Shown piece after piece: positions 3,201 to 58,247 of a stretch of DNA of 64,000 bases; within the stretch, counting starts at the first letter, position 1, and each line of letters opens with the position of its first letter. Source of the DNA: Dehalococcoidales bacterium. Lineage in GTDB: Bacteria > Chloroflexota > Dehalococcoidia > Dehalococcoidales > JAUWZL01. The stretch is taken from positions 999-64,998 of the forward strand of contig DAOUMC010000025.1 in NCBI GenBank assembly GCA_034413595.1, given 5' to 3'. The notes beneath the pieces were generated by a model. The model did not search any database. It was given only the letters and a program-made list of their open reading frames with translations, and had not been told where the DNA came from. Both the position numbers and the translations under genes were made by a program.

Positions 3201-3257
3201 TTCTCCCTTTTAAAAGCAGGAGAAAACAGTGGAGGACTTCACCCCTCTCGGGCACCC
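3201..3257. repeat. Degenerate copy of the purine/pyrimidine-rich double-hairpin REP-like element
   Basis: TTCTCC-cttttaaaag-ca-GGAGAA then GGAGG-acttca-CCCCTCTCGGGCACCC; resembles copies at 25268, 30131 and 47724. Confidence 0.4.
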
Positions 3258-24116: not shown

Positions 24117-25636
24117 GGCTTCGCTATCGAGGGGTTAAAGTGACGAGGGGAAAGCAACCGCCCGCATTAGAGGAGCGAGTGCTCCGCTTTGTTCGGGAGC
24201 ATCGGCTGGTGCCCGCCGGCTCTATTCTGCTGGTGGCGGTGTCCGGTGGCGCCGATTCAATCTGCCTGCTCCATCTTCTGGTCAGACTCAGTAGTGAACT
24301 TGACATAAGGCTTCATGTGGCCCACCTTGACCACATGCTGCGGGGCGCTGAATCGAAGGCTGATGCTGACTATGTCGCCCGGCTGGCCCGAGAGCTCGGT
24401 GTACCGGCGACTGTAGAGAAGCGTGATGTAGCGGCCTATAGGAAGGAAAAACGTATCTCGCTGGAAGAGGCAGCCCGGGAGGTGCGTTACCGTTTTCTGG
24501 CCGATACCGCTAGCTCGGTTGGTGCCGGCCGGATATCCACCGGCCACACCCAGGACGACCAGCTAGAAACGATACTGATGCACCTGGTGAGAGGCACGGG
24601 AACCAGGGGGCTCATCGGGCTGAAGCCGGTAAGCCAGTGGAAGTTAAACGGCTGGAGTGTCACCATAGTCCGGCCGCTGCTTGAAGTGAGCCGCCAGGAG
24701 ACCGCCGAATACTGCCAGAGCCACAAGCTCAACCCCAGAATGGACACCTCCAATCTTGAGCTGTCGCCACTGAGGAACAGAATCCGCCAGCAGCTATTAC
24801 CACTGCTGAAGAGCTACAACCCTGGCGTGGCCCAGGCCCTTCTCCGCGCCTCTGCCATTGCCGGCGGCGAGATTGCCTTCCTGGATGGCGAGGTGTCCCG
24901 TCTGTGGAATGAGGTTGTTCAGAAACAGGAGGGCGTGATTATCCTGGACAAGGAAAGATTTTCCCGGTTACCTCCTGCTTTGAAGCGACACCTGCTGAGG
25001 ACGGCTATTGAAGGGCTCTGGGGTAGCCTTAAGGACATAGAGGCGCGCCACATACAAGGGATAATGGCTGCCCTGGACAAACCGGCAGGCAAGCAGATCG
25101 GCCTGCCCGGTGGGCTGGTCTTCTCCATAGAATACGACAGGTACCTGCTGGGGCTGGAGCCGGCCAGCCTTTGCCCCTTTCCCGAGCTGACTGGTGAGTC
25201 TGCCCTCAAGATACCGGGAGAGACCAGACTTCCGGGTTGGCAGGTTGAGGCGACTGTCGGGAAGCCTGAGGGGACGTTAGCCCTTTTAAAAACTCCGGTT
25301 CCCCTTCCCTTTAGCAAAGGGAAGGGGGTAAAAGGAGTAGGATTAACTGATAACCTTACTGCCTGTTTTGATTTTGATAAGACCGGCGATGAGATTATGG
25401 TGAGAACCAGAAAACGCGGCGACAGCTTCCGGCCGTTGGGCTCAGTCGGGTCCAAGAAGCTAAACGAGTTTATGATTGACGCCAGAATCCCCCGCACCTG
25501 GCGGGAACGGATTCCGGTTGTCTTTTCCCCGGAGCACATCCTGTGGCTGGTCGGCTATCGCATAGACGAGAAAGTAAAGGTTACCGAAGCCACCAGGCAG
25601 GTTTTAAAATTGGATTTCAGGCGGACTGAAGATTGA
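24113..25636 (+). CDS. tilS: tRNA(Ile)-lysidine synthetase TilS with an in-frame palindromic insert
   Basis: VAVSGGADS PP-loop, HLDHMLR, EEAARxxRY, GHTQDDQLET, RNRIR; C-terminal KKLNEFMIDARIP...RERIP. Confidence 0.95.
   Translation: MRLRYRGVKVTRGKQPPALEERVLRFVREHRLVPAGSILLVAVSGGADSICLLHLLVRLSSELDIRLHVAHLDHMLRGAESKADADYVARLARELGVPATVEKRDVAAYRKEKRISLEEAAREVRYRFLADTASSVGAGRISTGHTQDDQLETILMHLVRGTGTRGLIGLKPVSQWKLNGWSVTIVRPLLEVSRQETAEYCQSHKLNPRMDTSNLELSPLRNRIRQQLLPLLKSYNPGVAQALLRASAIAGGEIAFLDGEVSRLWNEVVQKQEGVIILDKERFSRLPPALKRHLLRTAIEGLWGSLKDIEARHIQGIMAALDKPAGKQIGLPGGLVFSIEYDRYLLGLEPASLCPFPELTGESALKIPGETRLPGWQVEATVGKPEGTLALLKTPVPLPFSKGKGVKGVGLTDNLTACFDFDKTGDEIMVRTRKRGDSFRPLGSVGSKKLNEFMIDARIPRTWRERIPVVFSPEHILWLVGYRIDEKVKVTEATRQVLKLDFRRTED
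25268..25345. repeat. REP-like double hairpin embedded in the tilS coding sequence
   Basis: Perfect CCCCTTCCCTTT-AGC-AAAGGGAAGGGG stem (25301-25327), preceded by GAGGGG-acgttag-CCCTTTTAAAAACTCC. Boundaries approximate. Confidence 0.7.
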
Positions 25637-25641
25637 ATTTG

Positions 25642-26403
25642 CTATGTTACGTGAAAAAGTTCTATGGGATTTATTTTAAATTGCAGCATTTTTGATGTCT
25701 CTCTGCCCCCGTCCCCACCCTTTCTTTGCATGGTAATCTTCCCGATTTTCAGGCTTCCTCTATCTGTGATTCTAACCTCGCCACCACCAAAAATATTCAG
25801 GACATGATTTATATGCTTTAATGACCATTCAGGATTTGTGTTTTTCTTTTTTAAGACCACCATCATCCAATCAACAGGAAATTCATCGCTACCTTTTAGA
25901 ATATCCGAGACGATCAAAATCTTGTTTTCACTAAAGAAGTTAACAATAAGTTTTTGGGTCTGGGCATCCATTTCATCCAAGAACATCCTTCGCGGGTCTC
26001 TTAGGTTTCCTTTTTTAGGTTTTATCTCTCCAGTGAATAGTTTTAGCGCCTCGGTAATGCTTTGTGGGATATTCCACATTTCAACATACTTATCAATCCA
26101 GCGCTTGTCTATCTGATTGAAGCCTTGTGGGTTGCTCACCAATTTGACTGATAAGTTTTCTCTGGCGATAGCCTCTTTGAGATAGATGGTTATTTGGGCT
26201 TGAACGTCTGTTTTGTGACTGCCAGTTATAATTATTGCTTTAACATTTTCAATTTTCGCTAAATCATAACCCATAATGGTAAGCCACAATTGGGCATCTT
26301 CATCAACTCGCCAGTTATTAAACTTTTTGGCTATGTCCTTTTCGGTCTTAAAACCGCTTTTTGCTGTTTTAGAGCCAAGTTTTATCAAATCACTTCTATC
26401 CAA
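25642..26403 (-). CDS. Type II restriction endonuclease, HinP1I family
   Basis: GSKTAKSGFKTEKDIA, KTD..., VKLVSNPQGFNQIDKRW, DPRRMF, TMQRKGGDGGRETSKMLQFKINP closely follow R.HinP1I as I recall it; AT-rich. Confidence 0.85.
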   Translation of the reverse strand: MDRSDLIKLGSKTAKSGFKTEKDIAKKFNNWRVDEDAQLWLTIMGYDLAKIENVKAIIITGSHKTDVQAQITIYLKEAIARENLSVKLVSNPQGFNQIDKRWIDKYVEMWNIPQSITEALKLFTGEIKPKKGNLRDPRRMFLDEMDAQTQKLIVNFFSENKILIVSDILKGSDEFPVDWMMVVLKKKNTNPEWSLKHINHVLNIFGGGEVRITDRGSLKIGKITMQRKGGDGGRETSKMLQFKINPIELFHVT

Positions 26404-27217
26404 GATTAATTACCTCAAATGTAGCACTATTGAACATGTCATCCTGTTTGATTTCCACCTTTTCCTCAATCCTTTTCAAATAATCAGAGTTTAACTCTAT
26501 GCCTACAGAGTTCCTCCCCAAGTCTTTTGCTGCTTTTATGGTTGTTCCGCTGCCCAGGAACGGGTCTAGTATCCAATCCTCTACATAGGAATACATTTTT
26601 ATTAATCTAGCTGGCAATTCTAAAGGATAGGCAGCACAGTGCTTATCTTCAACCCCGTTTATATCGTTCCAGATGGCATCTCTGAATTTTCTAAAGTCCT
26701 CCGGCGTAACTTTTGACCTTTCTTTTATTTCTTTTGGCACTGATCTCTTACCGACTTTTCTGAAAACATGGATTGGTTCAACCGCATTAGAAATCATGAA
26801 ATTGGCTGGATAAGGATAGCTGCCAAACAGAACTGCACCATCCCTTGATGTTGTTTTTTGCCAGTAAATTGTACCCATAAATCTTAGATTGTTGAAACTA
26901 TTTAGTTGTTGCCATGTTAAAAGTGATAGGTTGGCCGTTGTTCTTCGTTTTTCATCAGGTTCGGAGTAATAAATGTTTCCAATATTTAGGGCTATCTTTC
27001 CATCGGGCAGCAAAGTCCTTACTACTTCTTTCCAGACCCTGTTTAGTCTATCTAAGTATTCTTCTAATGTATCATTTAGCCCGATTTGGTCTTTATGTCC
27101 ATAATCTCTAACATTCCAATAAGGGGGAGATGTAACCATCAACTGGAAGAAGTTATCGGGCAAACTCTTTAGTATTGTTTCGGTATCGCCAATGTAGATT
27201 TTATGCGTTGTCGTCAT
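26396..27217 (-). CDS. Beta-class amino-methyltransferase, probably N4-cytosine
   Basis: Motif IV TSPPY near the N-terminus precedes motif I LDPFLGSGTT (beta order); 8-nt overlap with the REase start; AT-rich. Confidence 0.88.
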   Translation of the reverse strand: MTTTHKIYIGDTETILKSLPDNFFQLMVTSPPYWNVRDYGHKDQIGLNDTLEEYLDRLNRVWKEVVRTLLPDGKIALNIGNIYYSEPDEKRRTTANLSLLTWQQLNSFNNLRFMGTIYWQKTTSRDGAVLFGSYPYPANFMISNAVEPIHVFRKVGKRSVPKEIKERSKVTPEDFRKFRDAIWNDINGVEDKHCAAYPLELPARLIKMYSYVEDWILDPFLGSGTTIKAAKDLGRNSVGIELNSDYLKRIEEKVEIKQDDMFNSATFEVINLG

Positions 27218-30053: not shown

Positions 30054-30078
30054 ACATCCTTTTGAGGTTGCTTGCCAA

Positions 30079-30162
30079 CCTCACCCCCTTTAATCCCCCT
30101 ATCCTTCTCAAGGGAAGGGGAAATAGATGGAAGAGGGGGCTAATGCCCCTCTTAGACACCCC
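30079..30162. repeat. REP-like double-hairpin element between pncA and purH
   Basis: CCCCTaTCCTT-CTC-AAGGgAAGGGG and AAGAGGGG-gctaatg-CCCCTCTTAGACACCCC. Confidence 0.7.
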
Positions 30163-30163
30163 A

Positions 30164-43804: not shown

Positions 43805-43840
43805 TGTCATTGCGAGGAGCGTCAGCGACGAAGCAATCTC
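43805..43840 (+). repeat. REP-like element, left flank of the GIY-YIG gene
   Basis: TGTCATTGCGAG-gagcgtcagcgacg-AAGCAATCTC. Confidence 0.85.
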
Positions 43841-43846
43841 AGGTCT

Positions 43847-44134
43847 ATGGATAAGCTCTATTACGTCTACATAATGACTAATAAAACAAATAAGGTGCTC
43901 TACACAGGCGTAACCAATGGGCTGAAACGGAGAGTCTACGAGCACAAGAATAAACTAGCTGAAGGATTCACCAAGAAGTATAACATTGACAAGCTCGTCT
44001 ACTATGAAGTGTGTGAGCAAGCAGAGAGTGCGATTCTGAGGGAGAAACAGATTAAAGGTGGTTCAAGGGAAAGGAAGATTAAACTGGTTAATAGTATGAA
44101 TAAAGAGTGGCGTGACCTTTATGATGAGTTGTAG
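43847..44134 (+). CDS. Stand-alone GIY-YIG nuclease (YhbQ-like)
   Basis: YYVYIM, LYTGVT..LKRRVYEH, EKQIKG, N.EWRDL; lower GC than neighbours. Confidence 0.9.
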   Translation: MDKLYYVYIMTNKTNKVLYTGVTNGLKRRVYEHKNKLAEGFTKKYNIDKLVYYEVCEQAESAILREKQIKGGSRERKIKLVNSMNKEWRDLYDEL

Positions 44135-44162
44135 AGATTGCTTTACTACGCTCGCAATGACA
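44134..44162 (-). repeat. REP-like element, right flank of the GIY-YIG gene (inverted)
   Basis: GAGATTGCTT-tactacg-CTCGCAATGACA; its reverse complement has the same arms as the left copy and overlaps the stop codon. Confidence 0.85.
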
Positions 44163-47574: not shown

Positions 47575-47609
47575 TGTCATTGCGAGGCACAGAGTGCCGA
47601 AGCAATCTC
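47575..47609 (+). repeat. Dispersed copy of the GIY-YIG-associated REP
   Basis: TGTCATTGCGAG-gcacagagtgccg-AAGCAATCTC. Confidence 0.85.
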
Positions 47610-47617
47610 TTGGTTGA

Positions 47618-47752
47618 AATCCCCCTTAGTCCCGCTTTGGCAAAGGGGGAACCAAACTTCCTTTTTTAAAGGGAGAGCGAGAGGGATTTTAGGGGCAGAG
47701 ATAAAGCTCGCGTCACCGGGCGTCCAAGAGGGGGTGCAGACCTCTCTTAGAC
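47618..47752. repeat. Cluster of purine/pyrimidine-rich REP-like hairpins
   Basis: AATCCCCCTTAGTCCCGCTTTGGCAAAGGGGGA, CTTCCTTTTTTAAAGGGAGAGCGAGAGGGATTT and AAGAGGGGG-tgcaga-CCTCTCTTAGAC (overlaps the htpX stop). Confidence 0.7.
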
Positions 47753-52475: not shown

Positions 52476-54701
52476 CTATTTCTTGTCCGGTGAGCTCTTG
52501 GTTATGGTAAAGCCGGCACCGTGGGGCGTTTCCTGATAGTCAATAACCATCCCCTCCAGCGATGGCACCAGTTCCGGGCTGATGACCAGAATCTTCATCC
52601 CGCCGCTTTCCACCACCTGGTCCTCTTTCTTAGCTCTATCCAGAGCCATCTTTAGCTGGTTCGGCTTATCAGGAGAACGGGTGATGCGGAAGCTCGCATC
52701 GGGGTCTTGAGTTTTGGCCCGGATTCCCTCTCTTAATTTTTCGGCGGCCAGCGCCGTTACGGTCAGCACGCCGGCAGCCAGTCTCTGCCCCTCCACAGGA
52801 CGGACCTGCTTGGCTTCGGCTCCCACAGCCCACGCCTCCCTGGCTTCGGCGGCGGTCATTCTGGCCTTCTCTTCGGCTTCCGAAACTTTTTTGTATTCAG
52901 CCTCCTGCCTGGCCCGGCCGCTGACTTCCCTTCTTACGCTCTCCTCGGCGGTTCTGGCCTCCTGCCTGGCCCTGGCCAGACTCTCGGTGACGTCCTGGCT
53001 GGGTTTGGCTCTCAGGGGTGCTGGCACTAAAGCCTTTATCCTATCTCTTCTGGCCAACAGAACGATGCCCAGGGTCAGCAGGACTGAGCCGGCGGCGACA
53101 CCTAAAATGAGCCACCAGTTAATACCCTGGTGTGGCGGTGGTGGCGGAGCGGCTTCTTCCTTTACCTCAAACGAGAAACTCAGCCCGCCGACCGACACCA
53201 AGTAAGTGCCGGCGGCGCTCTTGGTGGTGGTGAAGTCTACCGTTTCACTATCACCGGCGGTCAGGTTCAGTTCTTCTGTCGACTCAGCCGTCCCGTTCAC
53301 GGTAAAGGTTGCCTGATAGCTGCCGCCAAGCTCGCCGGTGTTGGTGACCGTGAAACCGACGGTCACCTGGTCTCCGGTGTCAACCTTGCTCAGGGATATA
53401 TCCCAGCCGCTGGTAACGAAAGTGGCCGGTGTCGCCAGTGTGGTGAAGGTGAATTCGGCGGATACCGCCAGGTTGCCGGCGCCGTCCCGGGACATAACCT
53501 TGTAGTGGTATAGCGTATTCGGGTTGAGGTCGGTCAGGTGGACGAGGTGCTCGGTAACCATGGTGGCGTCCAGCGGCGTCAGCTGGCTGGGGCTGGCCCA
53601 GTACTCCACCTGGCTGTCGCCGGACTCGTCCGTCGTCCAGGCGATGTCGGCGCTGGTCCGGGTGACATTGGAGCTTGATGTCTCTGAGATGGTCGGGGGT
53701 GTGTTGTCTGGTATCAGGCTGAAGTTGGCGGTGACCGTCTTATCTGCGTCCATGGTGACGGTGGTTGTAGCCGAACTGGGGTCGGCCACGTCTCCCGTCC
53801 AGCCGTCAAACTGCCAGCCGCTGGCCGGTGTGGCCGTGATATCAACTACGGTGCCCTCGGGATAGCTGTGCGTGCCCGCCGCCGGGTCGATGGTGCCGTT
53901 GCCGTTGACCGCCATGGTCAGGACGAACTGCCCCTGGAGTTTGAAGTTGGCGGTGACTGTTTTATCTGCGTCCATGGTGACGGTAGTTGTAGCCGAGCTG
54001 AGGTCGGCCACGTCACCTTCCCAGTGGTCGAATATCCATCCCGAACTGGCGGTAGCACTGATGTTGACCTGTGTTCCCCCATCGTAGTCATGAGGGCCTA
54101 CTGCCGGGTCGATGGTGCCGTTGCCATTTACCGCCATAGTCAGGGTGCAGGTGAAGATAGCCGTGATTGTCTTGTCTGCGTCCATGGTTACCGTGGTGTC
54201 CGCCGAGCTGGGGTCGGCCACGTCACCAACCCATTGTACAAACTGGTAGCCCGGGTCGTGTGTGGCACTGATGGGGACGACTGTTCCTATATCATAGGTG
54301 CCGGCACCGGAAGCGATGCCGTTGCCAAGTGTATTTATAATAAGCGTATATTGGGTGGGTGGTGGTGAGGTTACTGATAGATTAAGCTCGGTAGCCCCCC
54401 CCTCTTGAAAGGGATATGAACTAGCCTGTATTCCATTTACATAAAATATAATCGTATCTCCCGCGTTGCCGGGAACATCAAAGTTATAACTGCCACCGCT
54501 TGTACTGGTGCTCGCTACCGGTGTTCCATTTATTTCTGCAGTTACACTGGTACCATCAGGGGCAGGTGAGCTATCTATAGTGACAGTGCCCCAAAAGGCA
54601 TGCGGCATGGTTGGTGGTGGTTGAGCCATAACAATACTTGATGACAGCAGGTAGGAGACTAGTAGTATTACCAGAATGATGGTTCCTAAAAGCCTTTTCA
54701 C
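52476..54701 (-). CDS. Adhesin-like membrane protein (3 InlB B-type repeats, FN3, CARDB-like, TM) with a cytoplasmic HesB/IscA-like C-terminal domain
   Basis: PHAFWGTVT N-domain; three W.GDVAD.SS..TTVTMDADKT repeats; WTTDESGDSQVEY FN3; TM; LTVT..AAEKL...DQVVESGGMKILV...IDY....G.GF.I tail. Confidence 0.8.
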   Translation of the reverse strand: MKRLLGTIILVILLVSYLLSSSIVMAQPPPTMPHAFWGTVTIDSSPAPDGTSVTAEINGTPVASTSTSGGSYNFDVPGNAGDTIIFYVNGIQASSYPFQEGGATELNLSVTSPPPTQYTLIINTLGNGIASGAGTYDIGTVVPISATHDPGYQFVQWVGDVADPSSADTTVTMDADKTITAIFTCTLTMAVNGNGTIDPAVGPHDYDGGTQVNISATASSGWIFDHWEGDVADLSSATTTVTMDADKTVTANFKLQGQFVLTMAVNGNGTIDPAAGTHSYPEGTVVDITATPASGWQFDGWTGDVADPSSATTTVTMDADKTVTANFSLIPDNTPPTISETSSSNVTRTSADIAWTTDESGDSQVEYWASPSQLTPLDATMVTEHLVHLTDLNPNTLYHYKVMSRDGAGNLAVSAEFTFTTLATPATFVTSGWDISLSKVDTGDQVTVGFTVTNTGELGGSYQATFTVNGTAESTEELNLTAGDSETVDFTTTKSAAGTYLVSVGGLSFSFEVKEEAAPPPPPHQGINWWLILGVAAGSVLLTLGIVLLARRDRIKALVPAPLRAKPSQDVTESLARARQEARTAEESVRREVSGRARQEAEYKKVSEAEEKARMTAAEAREAWAVGAEAKQVRPVEGQRLAAGVLTVTALAAEKLREGIRAKTQDPDASFRITRSPDKPNQLKMALDRAKKEDQVVESGGMKILVISPELVPSLEGMVIDYQETPHGAGFTITKSSPDKK

Positions 54702-54733
54702 TTCGCCTCCTCAATCGCTCATAAATTATTATA

Positions 54734-56728
54734 TCAGTTGCTGTCTATAGTCAATGTGTTTGGGTTGGTCATCTCTATCCAGTAGGCCTTGCCCTCCGTC
54801 ATTTCAGTGAGGGTCGGCGGCGGGCCACCAGGAATGTAACGAGACCAAGTATCGGTAGCACCGTCGTAATACCACACTATCTCAACATCACCAATTATTC
54901 CAGCCAGCACATCCCCGATGGCGGACGAGGTGGGAGTCTCCGGTAGCGAGATGAGGTTCCAGCCGGCTACCAGATTTATATCGTAAGGGAGCGAAGGTTC
55001 TACCCCGTCAATGATGAGTTTACAGGGATTGGAAACGTGTATCCAGTAGCCTTTGCCCTCTGTCATATTGTTTAAGGTCGGCGGCGGGCCACCAGGAATG
55101 TAACGAGACCAAGTATCGGTAGCACCGTCGTAATACCACACTATGTCAACATTACCAATTACGTCAGCCAGCACATCGCCTATGGTGGTTGAGGCTGGTG
55201 TGCGCGGCAGGCCGACGAAGTTCCAGCCCGCAACTAGGTCGACGCCCGCTTCGTAGGTGGCATATCCCAGGGGCAGGGTGTTGCCCTGCAGTAAGTCCAC
55301 AACATTCTGGGCGGTAAGTGCGTCGATGCCCTGTGTATACCACATCTCGTAGACGCCGTTGTTGTAGATGACGCAGGGGGTGCCGACGCCGCTCCACGGG
55401 CTGCCGCTGGCACCGACCAGGGCGGTGGGGTTCTGGATATCCCAGGCCACGCCGTCACCTGAGGTGGCGTGGCCGATTACTGTACCGGTGTCGGCCAGAA
55501 GGGTCTTGACGTTGCCCATCCGGTTGTCTACGAGGTCAGTGAAGTCAGTCAGGAAATCGTTCAGGTTCACCACCGGGCTCAGGTCACCCCACAGGTTAAG
55601 CAAATCGGGCGCCAGCGCCCGTATCTCATCGGCAAGGTTCCCGAAGGTGGTCAGGGTCAGGTCTGTCTGGCCCCGGGTGTACCATATCTCATAGCTTGAG
55701 CCGTTCTTGATAACGCAGGGGAAGCCGACGCTGTCCCACGCCCCGCTACCGCTGGGCAGACCCGTGGCCGGTGTTTCTGCCCAGCCTATGCCATCGCTGG
55801 AGGTGGCATAGGCGATGCCGCTGCTGGTGCTGTCCAGGATATTCCACAGCTCGTCGGAGCCGAAGGTGCCAATGTTCGCCAGATAGTTATCAAGGTCGGT
55901 TCCGGTGAGGCTGGTACTGGCCTTGGTGTACCACATCTTGTAGGTGCCGCCATCGTTGATAACGCAGGGCGTGGCCACGCTGTCCCAGAGGTTGCCGCTC
56001 TGGTCTAGGCCTGTGGTGGGAGTTTCTGCCGCCCAGTTGATGCCGTCGGCGGACGTGGTGTAGCCGATGGTCGTGGCCGTGCTGTCAGTCAGGTTCAGTA
56101 TAGCGGCTTTTCTCGTCGCCTGGTCTGTGCTGCCCAGGTCAGTCAGGATAGAGTCAAACTCGGGCCGGGTCAGACTGGTCTTGGTGTGCGTGTACCACAT
56201 CTTGTAGGTGCCACCATCGTTGATAACGCAGGGGAAGCCGACGCTGTCCCAGCCGGCGCCACCACCCGCCAGCACTTGGGAATTGACCACCGTCCAGTCC
56301 GTGCCGTTGTTTGAAGTGGCGTAGCCGATAACGGTGCTGATATTACTCAGGAAGCCCCACAGGGCGTCGCGGGCATTGGCATCCAGAAGGGATATGTCAT
56401 TGAGCAGTTGCTCCAGGTTCTGGTCGGCTATATCGTTCACTATGTTATCGTTGAGTATGTCCCTTAGATAGCCGGCGATCTGGCTGATATAGAGCCCGGT
56501 CTTGCCGTGGGTGTACCACATCTGGTAGTCGTTGGGGCCGTTCTTTACCACCCAGGCATCCATGACATAAAGTTCGTTGTTGGCACCATTGAGAAGCGAC
56601 AGAGGACTCAGGTATTTTGTCCAGGGCACCGCTGCCTGAACCAGTGATACCAGGCTGACCATGAGAACTATGGTTAGGGCTAAGATTAACGCTGCTGTCC
56701 CGACGGCCCGGTTTTTACTCCGGTTCAT
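54734..56728 (-). CDS. Secreted five-bladed beta-propeller protein with helical inserts and two C-terminal AGWN repeats
   Basis: Signal peptide; five P.V....Y.MWYT...IGYATS.DG..W blades; two LVAGWN...WYYDGATDTWSRYIPGGPPPTL..MTEGK.YWI repeats. Start ATG 56728 chosen. Confidence 0.8.
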   Translation of the reverse strand: MNRSKNRAVGTAALILALTIVLMVSLVSLVQAAVPWTKYLSPLSLLNGANNELYVMDAWVVKNGPNDYQMWYTHGKTGLYISQIAGYLRDILNDNIVNDIADQNLEQLLNDISLLDANARDALWGFLSNISTVIGYATSNNGTDWTVVNSQVLAGGGAGWDSVGFPCVINDGGTYKMWYTHTKTSLTRPEFDSILTDLGSTDQATRKAAILNLTDSTATTIGYTTSADGINWAAETPTTGLDQSGNLWDSVATPCVINDGGTYKMWYTKASTSLTGTDLDNYLANIGTFGSDELWNILDSTSSGIAYATSSDGIGWAETPATGLPSGSGAWDSVGFPCVIKNGSSYEIWYTRGQTDLTLTTFGNLADEIRALAPDLLNLWGDLSPVVNLNDFLTDFTDLVDNRMGNVKTLLADTGTVIGHATSGDGVAWDIQNPTALVGASGSPWSGVGTPCVIYNNGVYEMWYTQGIDALTAQNVVDLLQGNTLPLGYATYEAGVDLVAGWNFVGLPRTPASTTIGDVLADVIGNVDIVWYYDGATDTWSRYIPGGPPPTLNNMTEGKGYWIHVSNPCKLIIDGVEPSLPYDINLVAGWNLISLPETPTSSAIGDVLAGIIGDVEIVWYYDGATDTWSRYIPGGPPPTLTEMTEGKAYWIEMTNPNTLTIDSN
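54812..55144. repeat. Identical 69-bp direct repeat pair (54812-54880 and 55076-55144)
   Basis: ggtcggcggcgggccacc...ataccacactat occurs twice, 264 bp apart. Confidence 0.9.
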
Positions 56729-57020
56729 AATATTCCCCAATCGTAATTGGGCAATACTGACCTTTCAGTGCCCCATCCAATATCTGGAGACAATAGTATT
56801 ATTTGATGCCTGCAATTGCCCAAAGGCTAGCATAACTTCTCTTACCCGTCAAGCCCTGCCGGTGAAGAGAGGCCAGAAACTTTAGTAACCGTCTGTCTTT
56901 TGGGGGATTAAAGGTGGCAAGCGGGGTCAGTTCGGGTTTCCTTTTCCTGTGTCAGTGGAGGGTGAGATGCTATGAACGTTAGCCTGTGAAGCCAAGTCCA
57001 GCCGATGAAAGCCGAGTTAC

Positions 57021-58247
57021 TTATGCCTGCTTTAGTCTAACCTGGATTTCCTTGCCCTTGCCCACCGCTTCCTCAATGAGTGGTACCTGTTTTAATGCCT
57101 GTATTAACGGGGTAGGCTTCTCCGTGGAAACAACGACCTGGGCGCCTTCGCTCTCCTTGCTAGAACCACCAATCATTATCAGGCGCAGGTCATGGAGCTG
57201 ACGTAGGCCTTCTTCCAGTTCTTTTATATCGCTGGAATCTACCGGTGGCATTATCACCAGTCTTGTGATTCCGGTAAATAAAGCGGCTGTACCCTTAACC
57301 TCAACCTTCTCTGCCTTTTCCTTGGCTTCCTGGACAGCCTCTTCCTCCGCCTCCCTGGCCTTCTCGGCTTCTGGTGCTTGCCTTGCCTCTTCTTCAGCCT
57401 TTTTAATTTCCCTCTCTGCCTTCTCTTTGGCTGCCCTATCGGCCTCTATCTTCGCCTTCTCTTCGGTCTCCTTGGCTTTCTTGGCCTCTAGTGACTGCTG
57501 GATGGCCCTTTGCTCTGCTTCCCGAGCCTCTCTGGCAGCTTTCTCCGCAGCGATGACCCTCTTCTCCGCCTCTTCGGCTGCTTCCTTGGCTTCTTTCTTG
57601 GCCTTAGCCTCTGCTTCCTTAACCCTTTTGACTTCTAGTGCCTCCCTGTTAGCCTTTTCCTTGGCTTCCCGAATGGCTTTTGCGGCGGTCTCTCTGGCTT
57701 CCCTGATGGCCCTGCCTGCGGTTTCTTCAGCCTTCCAAACAGCTTTCTCAGCGGCTTGTATCGTTTCGCGGGCCGCCCTGTCTGTGGCCTTCTTTGCGGT
57801 CTTAGTTTTTTCCAGCTTCTCTCTGGCTTCAGCGGCCGCCTGTCTGGCTTGTTTCGCTGCCGCCTTGGCTTCCTGGACAGCCTCTTCCGCCGCTTCCCTG
57901 ACCTTCTCGGCCTCTGGTGCCTCTTCTTGTGCTTCTCCGGCTTCCGGGACACCTTTTTCGGCGGCTTCTTTAGCATCCTGGATGGCCTTCTTCTCAGCCT
58001 TTATAGTTTCGCGGGCCGCCCTGTCTGTGGCCTTCTTTGCGGTCTTATCTTTTTCCAGCTTCTCTCTGGCTTCAGCGGCCGCCTGTCTGGCTTGTTTCGC
58101 TGCCGCTCTGGCCTCAAGTATAGCTCTTCGCGCCGCTTCCCTGGCTTCCTTAATGGCTTTTTCGGCGGCTTCTTTAGCATCCTGGATGGCCTTCTTCCGG
58201 GCCATCATGATTTGGTCCGTCCTAGTGGTGCCTTTTTGCTTAGCCAT
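57021..58247 (-). CDS. Ala/Glu/Lys-rich long coiled-coil protein with a small globular C-terminal domain
   Basis: About 320 aa of AEK heptads; C-terminal LVIMPPVD...IGGS...PTPLIQAL domain. Confidence 0.75.
   Translation of the reverse strand: MAKQKGTTRTDQIMMARKKAIQDAKEAAEKAIKEAREAARRAILEARAAAKQARQAAAEAREKLEKDKTAKKATDRAARETIKAEKKAIQDAKEAAEKGVPEAGEAQEEAPEAEKVREAAEEAVQEAKAAAKQARQAAAEAREKLEKTKTAKKATDRAARETIQAAEKAVWKAEETAGRAIREARETAAKAIREAKEKANREALEVKRVKEAEAKAKKEAKEAAEEAEKRVIAAEKAAREAREAEQRAIQQSLEAKKAKETEEKAKIEADRAAKEKAEREIKKAEEEARQAPEAEKAREAEEEAVQEAKEKAEKVEVKGTAALFTGITRLVIMPPVDSSDIKELEEGLRQLHDLRLIMIGGSSKESEGAQVVVSTEKPTPLIQALKQVPLIEEAVGKGKEIQVRLKQA
57763..58106. repeat. About 101-bp near-identical direct repeats (57763-57863 and 58006-58106)
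   Basis: Encodes AAKQARQAAAEAREKLEK(D/T)KTAKKATDRAARETI twice, 243 bp apart. Confidence 0.85.

Follow-up and report, generated by a model that had tools for sequence, protein, structure and literature searches.

Rickettsia palindromic elements (RPE) are the best known case of peptide creation by in-frame palindromes. These palindromic repeats are found in frame within host open reading frames (ORFs) (Ogata et al. 2000), with near half of the copies of three families located in ORFs, as summarized in a review (PMC10969869). Other small repeats invite comparison as well. Repetitive extragenic palindromic (REP) sequences and bacterial interspersed mosaic elements (BIME) are recognized by a set of criteria (PMC12306157) and associated with REP-associated tyrosine transposases (RAYT) (PMC2817692). 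Small nonautonomous repeats resembling MITE (miniature inverted-repeat transposable elements), such as ERIC/RU, fuse in frame with host ORFs (Delihas 2007, PMC2759123; review PMC10969869), while SRM/NTS hairpin repeats accompany the GIY-YIG nuclease Ssn (Chenal et al. 2025, PMC11893778). Here, we analyzed a 64,000-nt stretch, hereafter the window, corresponding to C25:999-64998 of G000, a 1.51-Mb, 32-contig metagenome-assembled genome (MAG) from a Dehalococcoidales bacterium that is 96% complete (G labels denote genomes, and L labels denote TilS or other loci). The tilS gene in this window contains EATVGKPEGTLALLKTPVPLPFSKGKGVKGVGLTDNLTAC, where an odd segment reads EGTLALLKTPVPLPFSKGKGVKGVGLT. 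Our reading, to which we give a probability of about 0.8, is that a ~95-nt member of an order-wide family of composite hairpins has become fixed in frame in tilS, replacing a linker.

A Composite Hairpin Repeat Lies within the tilS Reading Frame

The window TilS is matched in Pfam by ATP_bind_3 (1.3e-50), TilS (2.7e-4), and TilS_C (1.6e-15), corresponding to a PP-loop domain (residues 30 to 218), a substrate-binding TilS domain (residues 269 to 325), and TilS_C (residues 419 to 486). These positions place the repeat-encoded segment in the linker preceding TilS_C. The enzyme core is intact despite the insert, and every invariant column of an alignment with 30 orthologs is kept. When compared to the closest solved structure, that of G. 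kaustophilus TilS (3A2K, E 7e-63), the interval between the aligned blocks is ~24 residues longer in the window TilS. In an AlphaFold2 model computed with the 30-sequence alignment (mean predicted local distance difference test score, or pLDDT, of 84.6), the segment is a coil, with average pLDDT of 38 to 49 for residues 381 to 400 and values below 50 for residues 384 to 401, flanked by strands 367 to 374 and 405 to 411. The insert is thus predicted to be a ~30-residue disordered surface loop, modeled with low confidence between two strands, as a first-pass annotation of the bare sequence had anticipated.

That annotation had proposed a REP-like palindromic element at 25268 to 25345, with a perfect 12-bp hairpin, translated within tilS. 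The sequence, peptide, and hairpin held up on rereading, and the hairpin was never matched in 100 shuffles. The element is indeed at this position, with slightly wider limits when defined by a sequence profile (Table 1). It is composed of a degenerate purine-first hairpin (module A), a perfect pyrimidine-first hairpin (module B) enclosed by a short outer stem, and a purine-rich tail; the D404-N405 codons that come next can be assigned either to this tail or to tilS. The pyrimidine arm reads P/L/F/S and the purine arm K/G/E/R. The RNA from 25250 to 25360 folds at -43.3 kcal/mol (z = -2.9), module A being weakened but still partly paired. Stops interrupt two of the element's three forward frames but not the one used by tilS, and survival in the gene therefore required the correct frame.

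The Repeat Is Dispersed between Genes in the Same Genome

We searched G000 using an nhmmer profile built solely from the tilS-embedded copies of six species. This identified 27 nonoverlapping copies at E <= 1e-3, with a common architecture in which module A (AAGAGGGGC-loop-GCCCCTCTT, with a loop of N3-5 in the consensus) is followed by module B (TCCCCYTCYCCTT-loop-AAGGRGARGGGGA) and a purine-rich tail (ATTAAGGGGGTGAGGTTRAT). Pattern and hairpin scans gave a consistent picture, with purine-first hairpins adjoining pyrimidine-first ones (TCCCCCTCTCC / CCCCTTCCCTT-loop-complement), then GATTAAGGGGGTGAGGTT. We take the purine arm and the tail to resemble a Shine-Dalgarno (SD) sequence and the pyrimidine arm to resemble an anti-SD. 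Outside tilS, all the copies are intergenic (26/27), in 16 tandem, 6 convergent, and 4 divergent gaps. Since ~88% of G000 is open reading frame in our crude ORF model, the family is strongly excluded from genes. The tilS copy alone in this genome lies deep within a long ORF, which extends for 382 aa upstream of it and 93 aa downstream. Similarly, among the 49 perfect hairpins of the family type in G000 (stems of at least 8 bp, 21 to 30 nt each), the one in tilS is again alone among family hairpins in lying far inside a long ORF, while two unrelated-looking hairpins (C18:75348 and C29:1328) are also in long open frames. The module B stem subtype found in tilS recurs in at least six intergenic copies.

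Two open frames running over other copies (C30:60554 and C21:1310) were discarded, being stretches of 112 to 130 aa without support. Separately, at C19:61965-61990, an ORF with 594 aa upstream of a module B hairpin stops two codons past the hairpin, and its C-terminal residues are therefore repeat-encoded. Hairpins also occur in arrays of two to four, as in C1:28692-28835 or C10:41024-41136. Several intergenic module A hairpins have A/T-run flanks, which is why some of these copies may act as terminators.

Within the window, the first-pass annotation had listed three further sites. The one at 30079 to 30162 is a clear minus-strand copy, whereas the one at 47618 to 47752 is weak, although a module A hairpin with a TAGAC flank (to 47751) was found there by pattern at 47727 to 47747. 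The third, a degenerate site at 3201 to 3257, was undetected by the profile at E <= 10.

These findings bear on a trivial explanation, in which the segment would be a native low-complexity linker resembling the repeats by chance or a chimera of the MAG assembly. P/K/G-rich linkers are common, and repeats can misjoin contigs in an assembly of 32 contigs such as this one. However, the match to a profile from other species extends over 95 nt with an E of 1.9e-23, and both hairpins, the spacer, and the tail are in the correct order. Moreover, neither the reading frame nor the TilS sequence on either side is disrupted, and the same arrangement is present in independent assemblies from many studies. 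We therefore consider this explanation exceedingly improbable.

The Window Copy Has Replaced a Native Linker

If the segment derives from a repeat, orthologs are expected to show a gap at its position, a check that the first-pass annotation had proposed. Most of 30 TilS from the same order do show this gap, as do those from ~80 further loci, so that most of ~100 Dehalococcoidia TilS are gapped. A first tree built with the 30 sequences was a star, and it was replaced by a tree of 100 sequences from which the insert columns were removed. The window TilS belongs in this tree to a seven-member clade with a support of 97. In the other six members (L006, L018, L036, L034, L017/L035), a short native linker is retained. 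It is of the xERRKISEKDDDF type, with an x-EK-D-D/N-DF pattern, and is homologous to the linker of distant clades (IINREQMAEKDNDF). In contrast, the window TilS has no trace of the native linker, and GKPEG...GLT is found in its place. The window copy is thus not a pure insertion, but a replacement of the native ~10-codon linker with 30 residues. Because the replaced linker is not regenerable and the six sisters keep the native one, the state seen in the window is derived in its own lineage.

We considered whether a tilS segment already bearing the repeat was imported by recombination. This was rejected, as similarity is not raised beside the junctions. The flanks adjacent to the insert are 64 to 71% similar to those of carriers and 69 to 72% to that of a noncarrier; being no closer to the former than to the latter, they give no sign that a tilS segment was brought in from another source. 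The tail of the element (GGTTGATAGATAAT, taken from an intergenic copy) and native tilS (GATAAY GAC TTT) have GATAAY in common at the right junction, possibly a microhomology.

The tilS Linker Is a Hotspot of Repeat Gain, Replacement, and Loss

Besides the window TilS, at least 20 Dehalococcoidales TilS carry modules of the same family at the same site, scattered over the tree. In the 100 sampled TilS, such modules are present in 14, where they are of three types (T1, T2, and T3; Table 1). Four further carriers (G067, G107, G112, and G070) were confirmed as TilS by their PP-loop motif. Module presence needs ~14 state changes on the tree, and well-supported branches force at least four for T1 alone. 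Sister sequences differ, as in L033 (T1) versus L040 (native linker) or L046 (T3) versus L060 (none), and a single tight clade (support 99) contains a T2 (L038), a T1 (L092), and a remnant (L090). In G083 and G114, T1 and T2 are in tandem within tilS. The full T1 module, including its PSIVKGKPEG part, is also found between genes in G044 and G043, and this part is therefore element-derived.

Some of these alleles carry a mark of how the repeat might have arrived. In L002, L004, G067, and G112, the element has to its left a CTTTACCRCC-like sequence (GACTTTACCACC) that nearly repeats the native codons lying downstream (CTTTACCGCC, DFTAY), and a weaker one is found in L003, L038, and G107. This looks like a target-site duplication (TSD) in some tilS lineages, and it is absent from the window copy and L033. 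Together with the GATAAY microhomology, this duplication-like repeat suggests an insertion that would be host-mediated or at a staggered cut.

The same linker has received other repeats. In L083 and L088 (genomes G128 and G129), it is filled by an unrelated GC-rich hairpin repeat with a unit of ~35 nt (TCGGTCCGAACAGAGTATCGGACTCCGCAAGGCGGAGAGTCC), of which 10 or more further copies are found in that genome. Outside the phylum, a TilS from a Nitrospiria MAG (L106) has a 20- to 25-aa insert (LPSELPSPQERGNKERELS) at this linker. A CCCCTC/GAGGGG hairpin encodes the insert, and three partial copies, all weak, occur at other places in the genome. Three unrelated repeat families are thus seen in the tilS linker. 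A stronger proposition, that across bacterial lineages hairpin repeats preferentially land and are kept in the linker before TilS_C, which would then be more than just tolerant, is in our view quite unlikely.

A history with fewer insertions can also be envisaged, in which the common ancestor of the main Dehalococcoidales clade received a single insertion, or already had a T1+T2 array, and vertical inheritance was accompanied by differential deletion of modules and many complete losses, the window copy being a relic and not a gain of its own lineage. The tandem arrays in G083 and G114 fit such a history, as do L090 and L008, which resemble deletion remnants, and the T3 carriers, which form one tree group (support 89) with stepwise internal deletions from 41 to 36 to 35 aa. 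Furthermore, a TSD-like left flank (DFTT / DDAGGY) is common to T2 carriers from several clades, and the divergence of the window element is about that of its flanks (70 to 75% versus 67 to 73%). However, T1 carriers are without a native linker, while their sisters (L040 and L094, and for the window L017, L034, and L036) keep the homolog of the distant-clade linker, which a simple deletion cannot recreate. T1 takes the place of the linker and T2 comes after it, which calls for two or more separate events, and the changes forced for T1 and the unrelated repeat of L083 and L088 also argue against a single origin. We regard an ancient insertion as unlikely.

We therefore favor the fixation of a family member in frame in tilS in the lineage of the window. 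The element would have landed between the substrate-binding domain and TilS_C, replacing the native linker. With its stop-free frame, ribosomes would read through it, which would produce an extra loop and leave the enzyme intact, and the copy would persist because the interdomain linker tolerates changes in length and sequence. The same linker would have been colonized, remodeled, and cleared repeatedly in other Dehalococcoidales. We infer that the selective effect of the insert is near neutral.

The Family Extends to ispE and to Gene Starts across the Order

We next looked at the family beyond tilS. Related genomes have 15 to 80 copies each. Using the T2 peptide as a query against 121 genomes in the order, we obtained matches in 77, with a maximum of 63 in one genome. 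Of the listed matches, the ones lying far inside long uninterrupted frames are TilS, in at least nine genomes, and IspE, a GHMP kinase, in two (G030 and G056). The IspE insert (RSLKGRSPFKTNTSPSPSKERGIKGERLISN, residues 218 to 249 of 320) is of the same family and in frame, while G000 IspE (C19:39813-40691) is without a family segment. The profile scan for copies within coding sequences that the first-pass annotation had suggested thus revealed a 27-copy family but no second genic copy in G000, and tilS and ispE copies were found in relatives. Three other candidates (G019:C93, G019:C115, and G027:C23) were rejected because the element sits there at gene boundaries.

The other matches in long frames are at the 5' ends of genes, where the tail abuts or supplies the predicted start of der (L114), a truA-like gene (L130), a dapB-like gene (L131), and L132. 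The element may be a portable leader or ribosome-binding region. As a separate observation in G000, the element tail at C27:11241-11332 likewise adjoins or overlaps a predicted start codon.

Since the SD-like tail lies where other genes have their leader or predicted start, co-option in tilS is conceivable. The hairpin and an SD-like tract (AAGGAG / GGGGGTGAGG, with an in-frame GTG/TTG after it in T2) would tune tilS expression, possibly by ribosome pausing between domains, mRNA stabilization, or internal initiation of a free TilS_C, and selection would explain why the copy is retained. The stability of the RNA fold is in keeping with this, and so is the family consensus, which is kept across the whole order. 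It is in this context that several points weighing against the reading that we favor have to be considered. Hairpin B is perfect (10 to 13 bp) in most tilS copies across lineages, at least 10 in number, and its stem variants differ by paired changes in the two arms, as in L002 versus L004. Element identity between carriers is equal to or higher than that of coding flanks, with 92% versus 76 to 85% for T1 (L033/L041) and 82 to 91% versus 74 to 82% for T2. This is above what is expected of a neutral linker, and selection on DNA or RNA structure is therefore possible. The weak resolution of the TilS tree in places, with 38 of 97 branches left unresolved (support <80), makes the number of independent events uncertain. 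In addition, the count of intergenic copies rests on the crude ORF caller, and translation through the tilS element is deduced from an intact frame and conserved flanks.

Other observations are difficult to reconcile with co-option. Most TilS orthologs, including the nearest, are without any insert, and the site is variable in module content, in length (about 25 to 60 aa), and even in the repeat family. In the window copy itself, module A is decayed, no in-frame GTG/TTG/ATG is found until ~60 nt past the SD-like tract, and no promoter-like or terminator-like site was called, the latter being a G+C-rich stem with a T-run directly after it. As for the paired stem differences, they match discrete genomic subfamilies, so that replacement or conversion suffices without selection. 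The high conservation of the element could reflect recurrent recent arrival from genomic subfamilies, gene conversion, or structural selection. On balance, we find co-option very unlikely, and we retain in-frame fixation in a tolerant linker.

Table 1. Coordinates of the features discussed, in the window unless a genome is named
Feature	Position	Strand	Description and evidence
tilS, tRNA(Ile)-lysidine synthase coding sequence	24140..25636	+	GTG start 24140, 498 codons, TGA stop 25634-25636
In-frame composite hairpin repeat	25259..25353	+	Encodes G374-T403 (GKPEGTLALLKTPVPLPFSKGKGVKGVGLT); nhmmer E 1.9e-23
Module A, degenerate purine-first hairpin	25268..25287	+	GAGGGGAC-GTTA-GCCCTTTT; sequence, aligned with tilS and intergenic modules
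Outer 5-bp stem enclosing module B	25292..25338	+	ACTCC (25292-25296)/GGAGT (25334-25338); minimum-free-energy and centroid folds
Module B, perfect 12-bp pyrimidine-first hairpin	25301..25327	+	CCCCTTCCCTTT-AGC-AAAGGGAAGGGG, read PLPFSKGKG; single exact match
Purine-rich tail	25328..25353	+	GTAAAAGGAGTAGGATTAACTGATAA (family consensus ATTAAGGGGGTGAGGTTRATAGATAA), read VKGVGLTD; alignment with tilS and intergenic copies
Full-length intergenic copy	30077..30163	-	nhmmer E 1.4e-9, model positions 10-97
Degenerate composite, hairpins resembling the family	47618..47752	-	Weak; nhmmer E 0.14 for 47621-47673
In-frame ispE copy (L128)	G030:C113:3467-3559		GHMP kinase
In-frame ispE copy (L129)	G056:C13:2855-2950		GHMP kinase
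T1 modules	tilS linker of the window, L002, L033, L041, L092		KGKPEGALAPSET.TPLPLDKGKGIKGIGLI
T2 modules	tilS linker of L003, L004, L010, L038, and L007 (variant)		KGRSPFxNYSSPSPSKERGIKGVRLI
T3 modules	tilS linker of L032, L037, L039, L046		GEAPLTxxPPPFSREGDKGGGL

Comparison with Known Palindromic Repeats

In the literature that we searched, neither this Dehalococcoidales family nor a tilS hotspot is described, and the family has no Rfam entry, the only match being a subthreshold one to SNORA61 that we attribute to chance (29 bits versus a 74-bit cut-off). Its closest likeness is to RPE. Both are dispersed palindromic repeats of ~100 nt found between genes and in frame in conserved housekeeping genes, where they are read through as a loop peptide, the host fold being kept, and neither includes a transposase within the element. 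In-frame insertion with a fold-compatible loop is seen in tilS and then in ispE as a second case. The idea put forward in the first-pass annotation, that the route of peptide creation known in Rickettsia operates here with a different repeat family, is thus supported by the ortholog gap, the dispersed family, and the loop model. There are nevertheless differences. The sequences are probably unrelated, and the hosts are Chloroflexota that live freely as anaerobes, which is why we describe the element as an analog and not as a member of RPE. While near half of RPE copies (three families) are in ORFs, 26/27 are intergenic here; modular arrays of 21- to 30-nt purine-first and pyrimidine-first hairpins take the place of one long palindrome; and copies are concentrated on one site of one gene, with module turnover.

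The resemblance to REP and BIME of Enterobacteria and Pseudomonas is in the form and location of the repeats. These are short, G+C-rich stem-loops that follow a common consensus and exist in multiple copies, nearly all of them outside genes and often close to gene ends, which form mosaics of two to four hairpins. On the other hand, the arms here are homopurine/homopyrimidine, there are tens of copies and not hundreds, and one copy appears to be translated. BIME orientation alternation cannot be scored, since the units are palindromes of two kinds. We found no Y1_Tnp domain (PF01797) and hence no RAYT in G000. Of 41 relatives, just five have Y1_Tnp, and these are not the ones rich in the element, as G007, G019, G020, G027, G028, G030, and G032, which are element-rich, have none; mobilization by a RAYT was therefore rejected. 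The REP-like label was apt insofar as this is an extragenic palindromic repeat with a consensus, but without a RAYT it is not a REP in the strict sense.

Like MITE-like repeats, the element is small and nonautonomous and provides a new in-frame peptide segment. It differs from them in having no terminal inverted repeats, no identified parent insertion sequence, and a duplication-like repeat only in some tilS lineages. In an alignment of copies, the left (GGGGTGTCT) and right (GGGGGTGAGGTT) ends carry a GGGGTG motif that is direct, not inverted.

Finally, dispersed hairpin repeats in the same genome as an Ssn-like gene recall the Ssn system. The window has a small GIY-YIG (Ssn-like) gene (43805 to 44162), bracketed by GTCATTGCGAG...GCAATC hairpins (flanks GTCATTGCGAGGAGCGTCAGCGACGAAGCAATC), which are also found at 47580 to 47610. 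More copies of this repeat are found at C21, C24, and C30, often beside purine/pyrimidine hairpins. A link of the tilS element to Ssn was rejected, as the nuclease-flanking repeat is a different sequence.

Other Features of the Window

Two additional regions were noted. Just downstream of tilS, on the minus strand (25642 to 27217), a 253-aa ORF overlaps one of 273 aa that has a DNA-methyltransferase-like TSPPYWN motif; the two are likely a restriction-modification pair, where relatives may have other genes. Farther on (52800 to 58200), long minus-strand coding sequence contains large internal direct-repeat families with units of 33 to 342 nt, suggesting repeat-rich surface-type proteins.

Significance

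Taken together, these findings extend peptide creation by in-frame palindromes to free-living Dehalococcoidales with small genomes, and they define a new repeat family that is RAYT-less. They also carry a warning for annotation because P/S/K/G-rich segments of 25 to 60 residues in TilS or IspE from such MAGs are repeat-derived. The filled, remodeled, remnant, and empty alleles at one site of an essential enzyme provide a natural series for the study of insertion and removal, and the concentration of in-frame copies in tilS raises the question of whether it is insertion bias or tolerance that shapes where these repeats are found.

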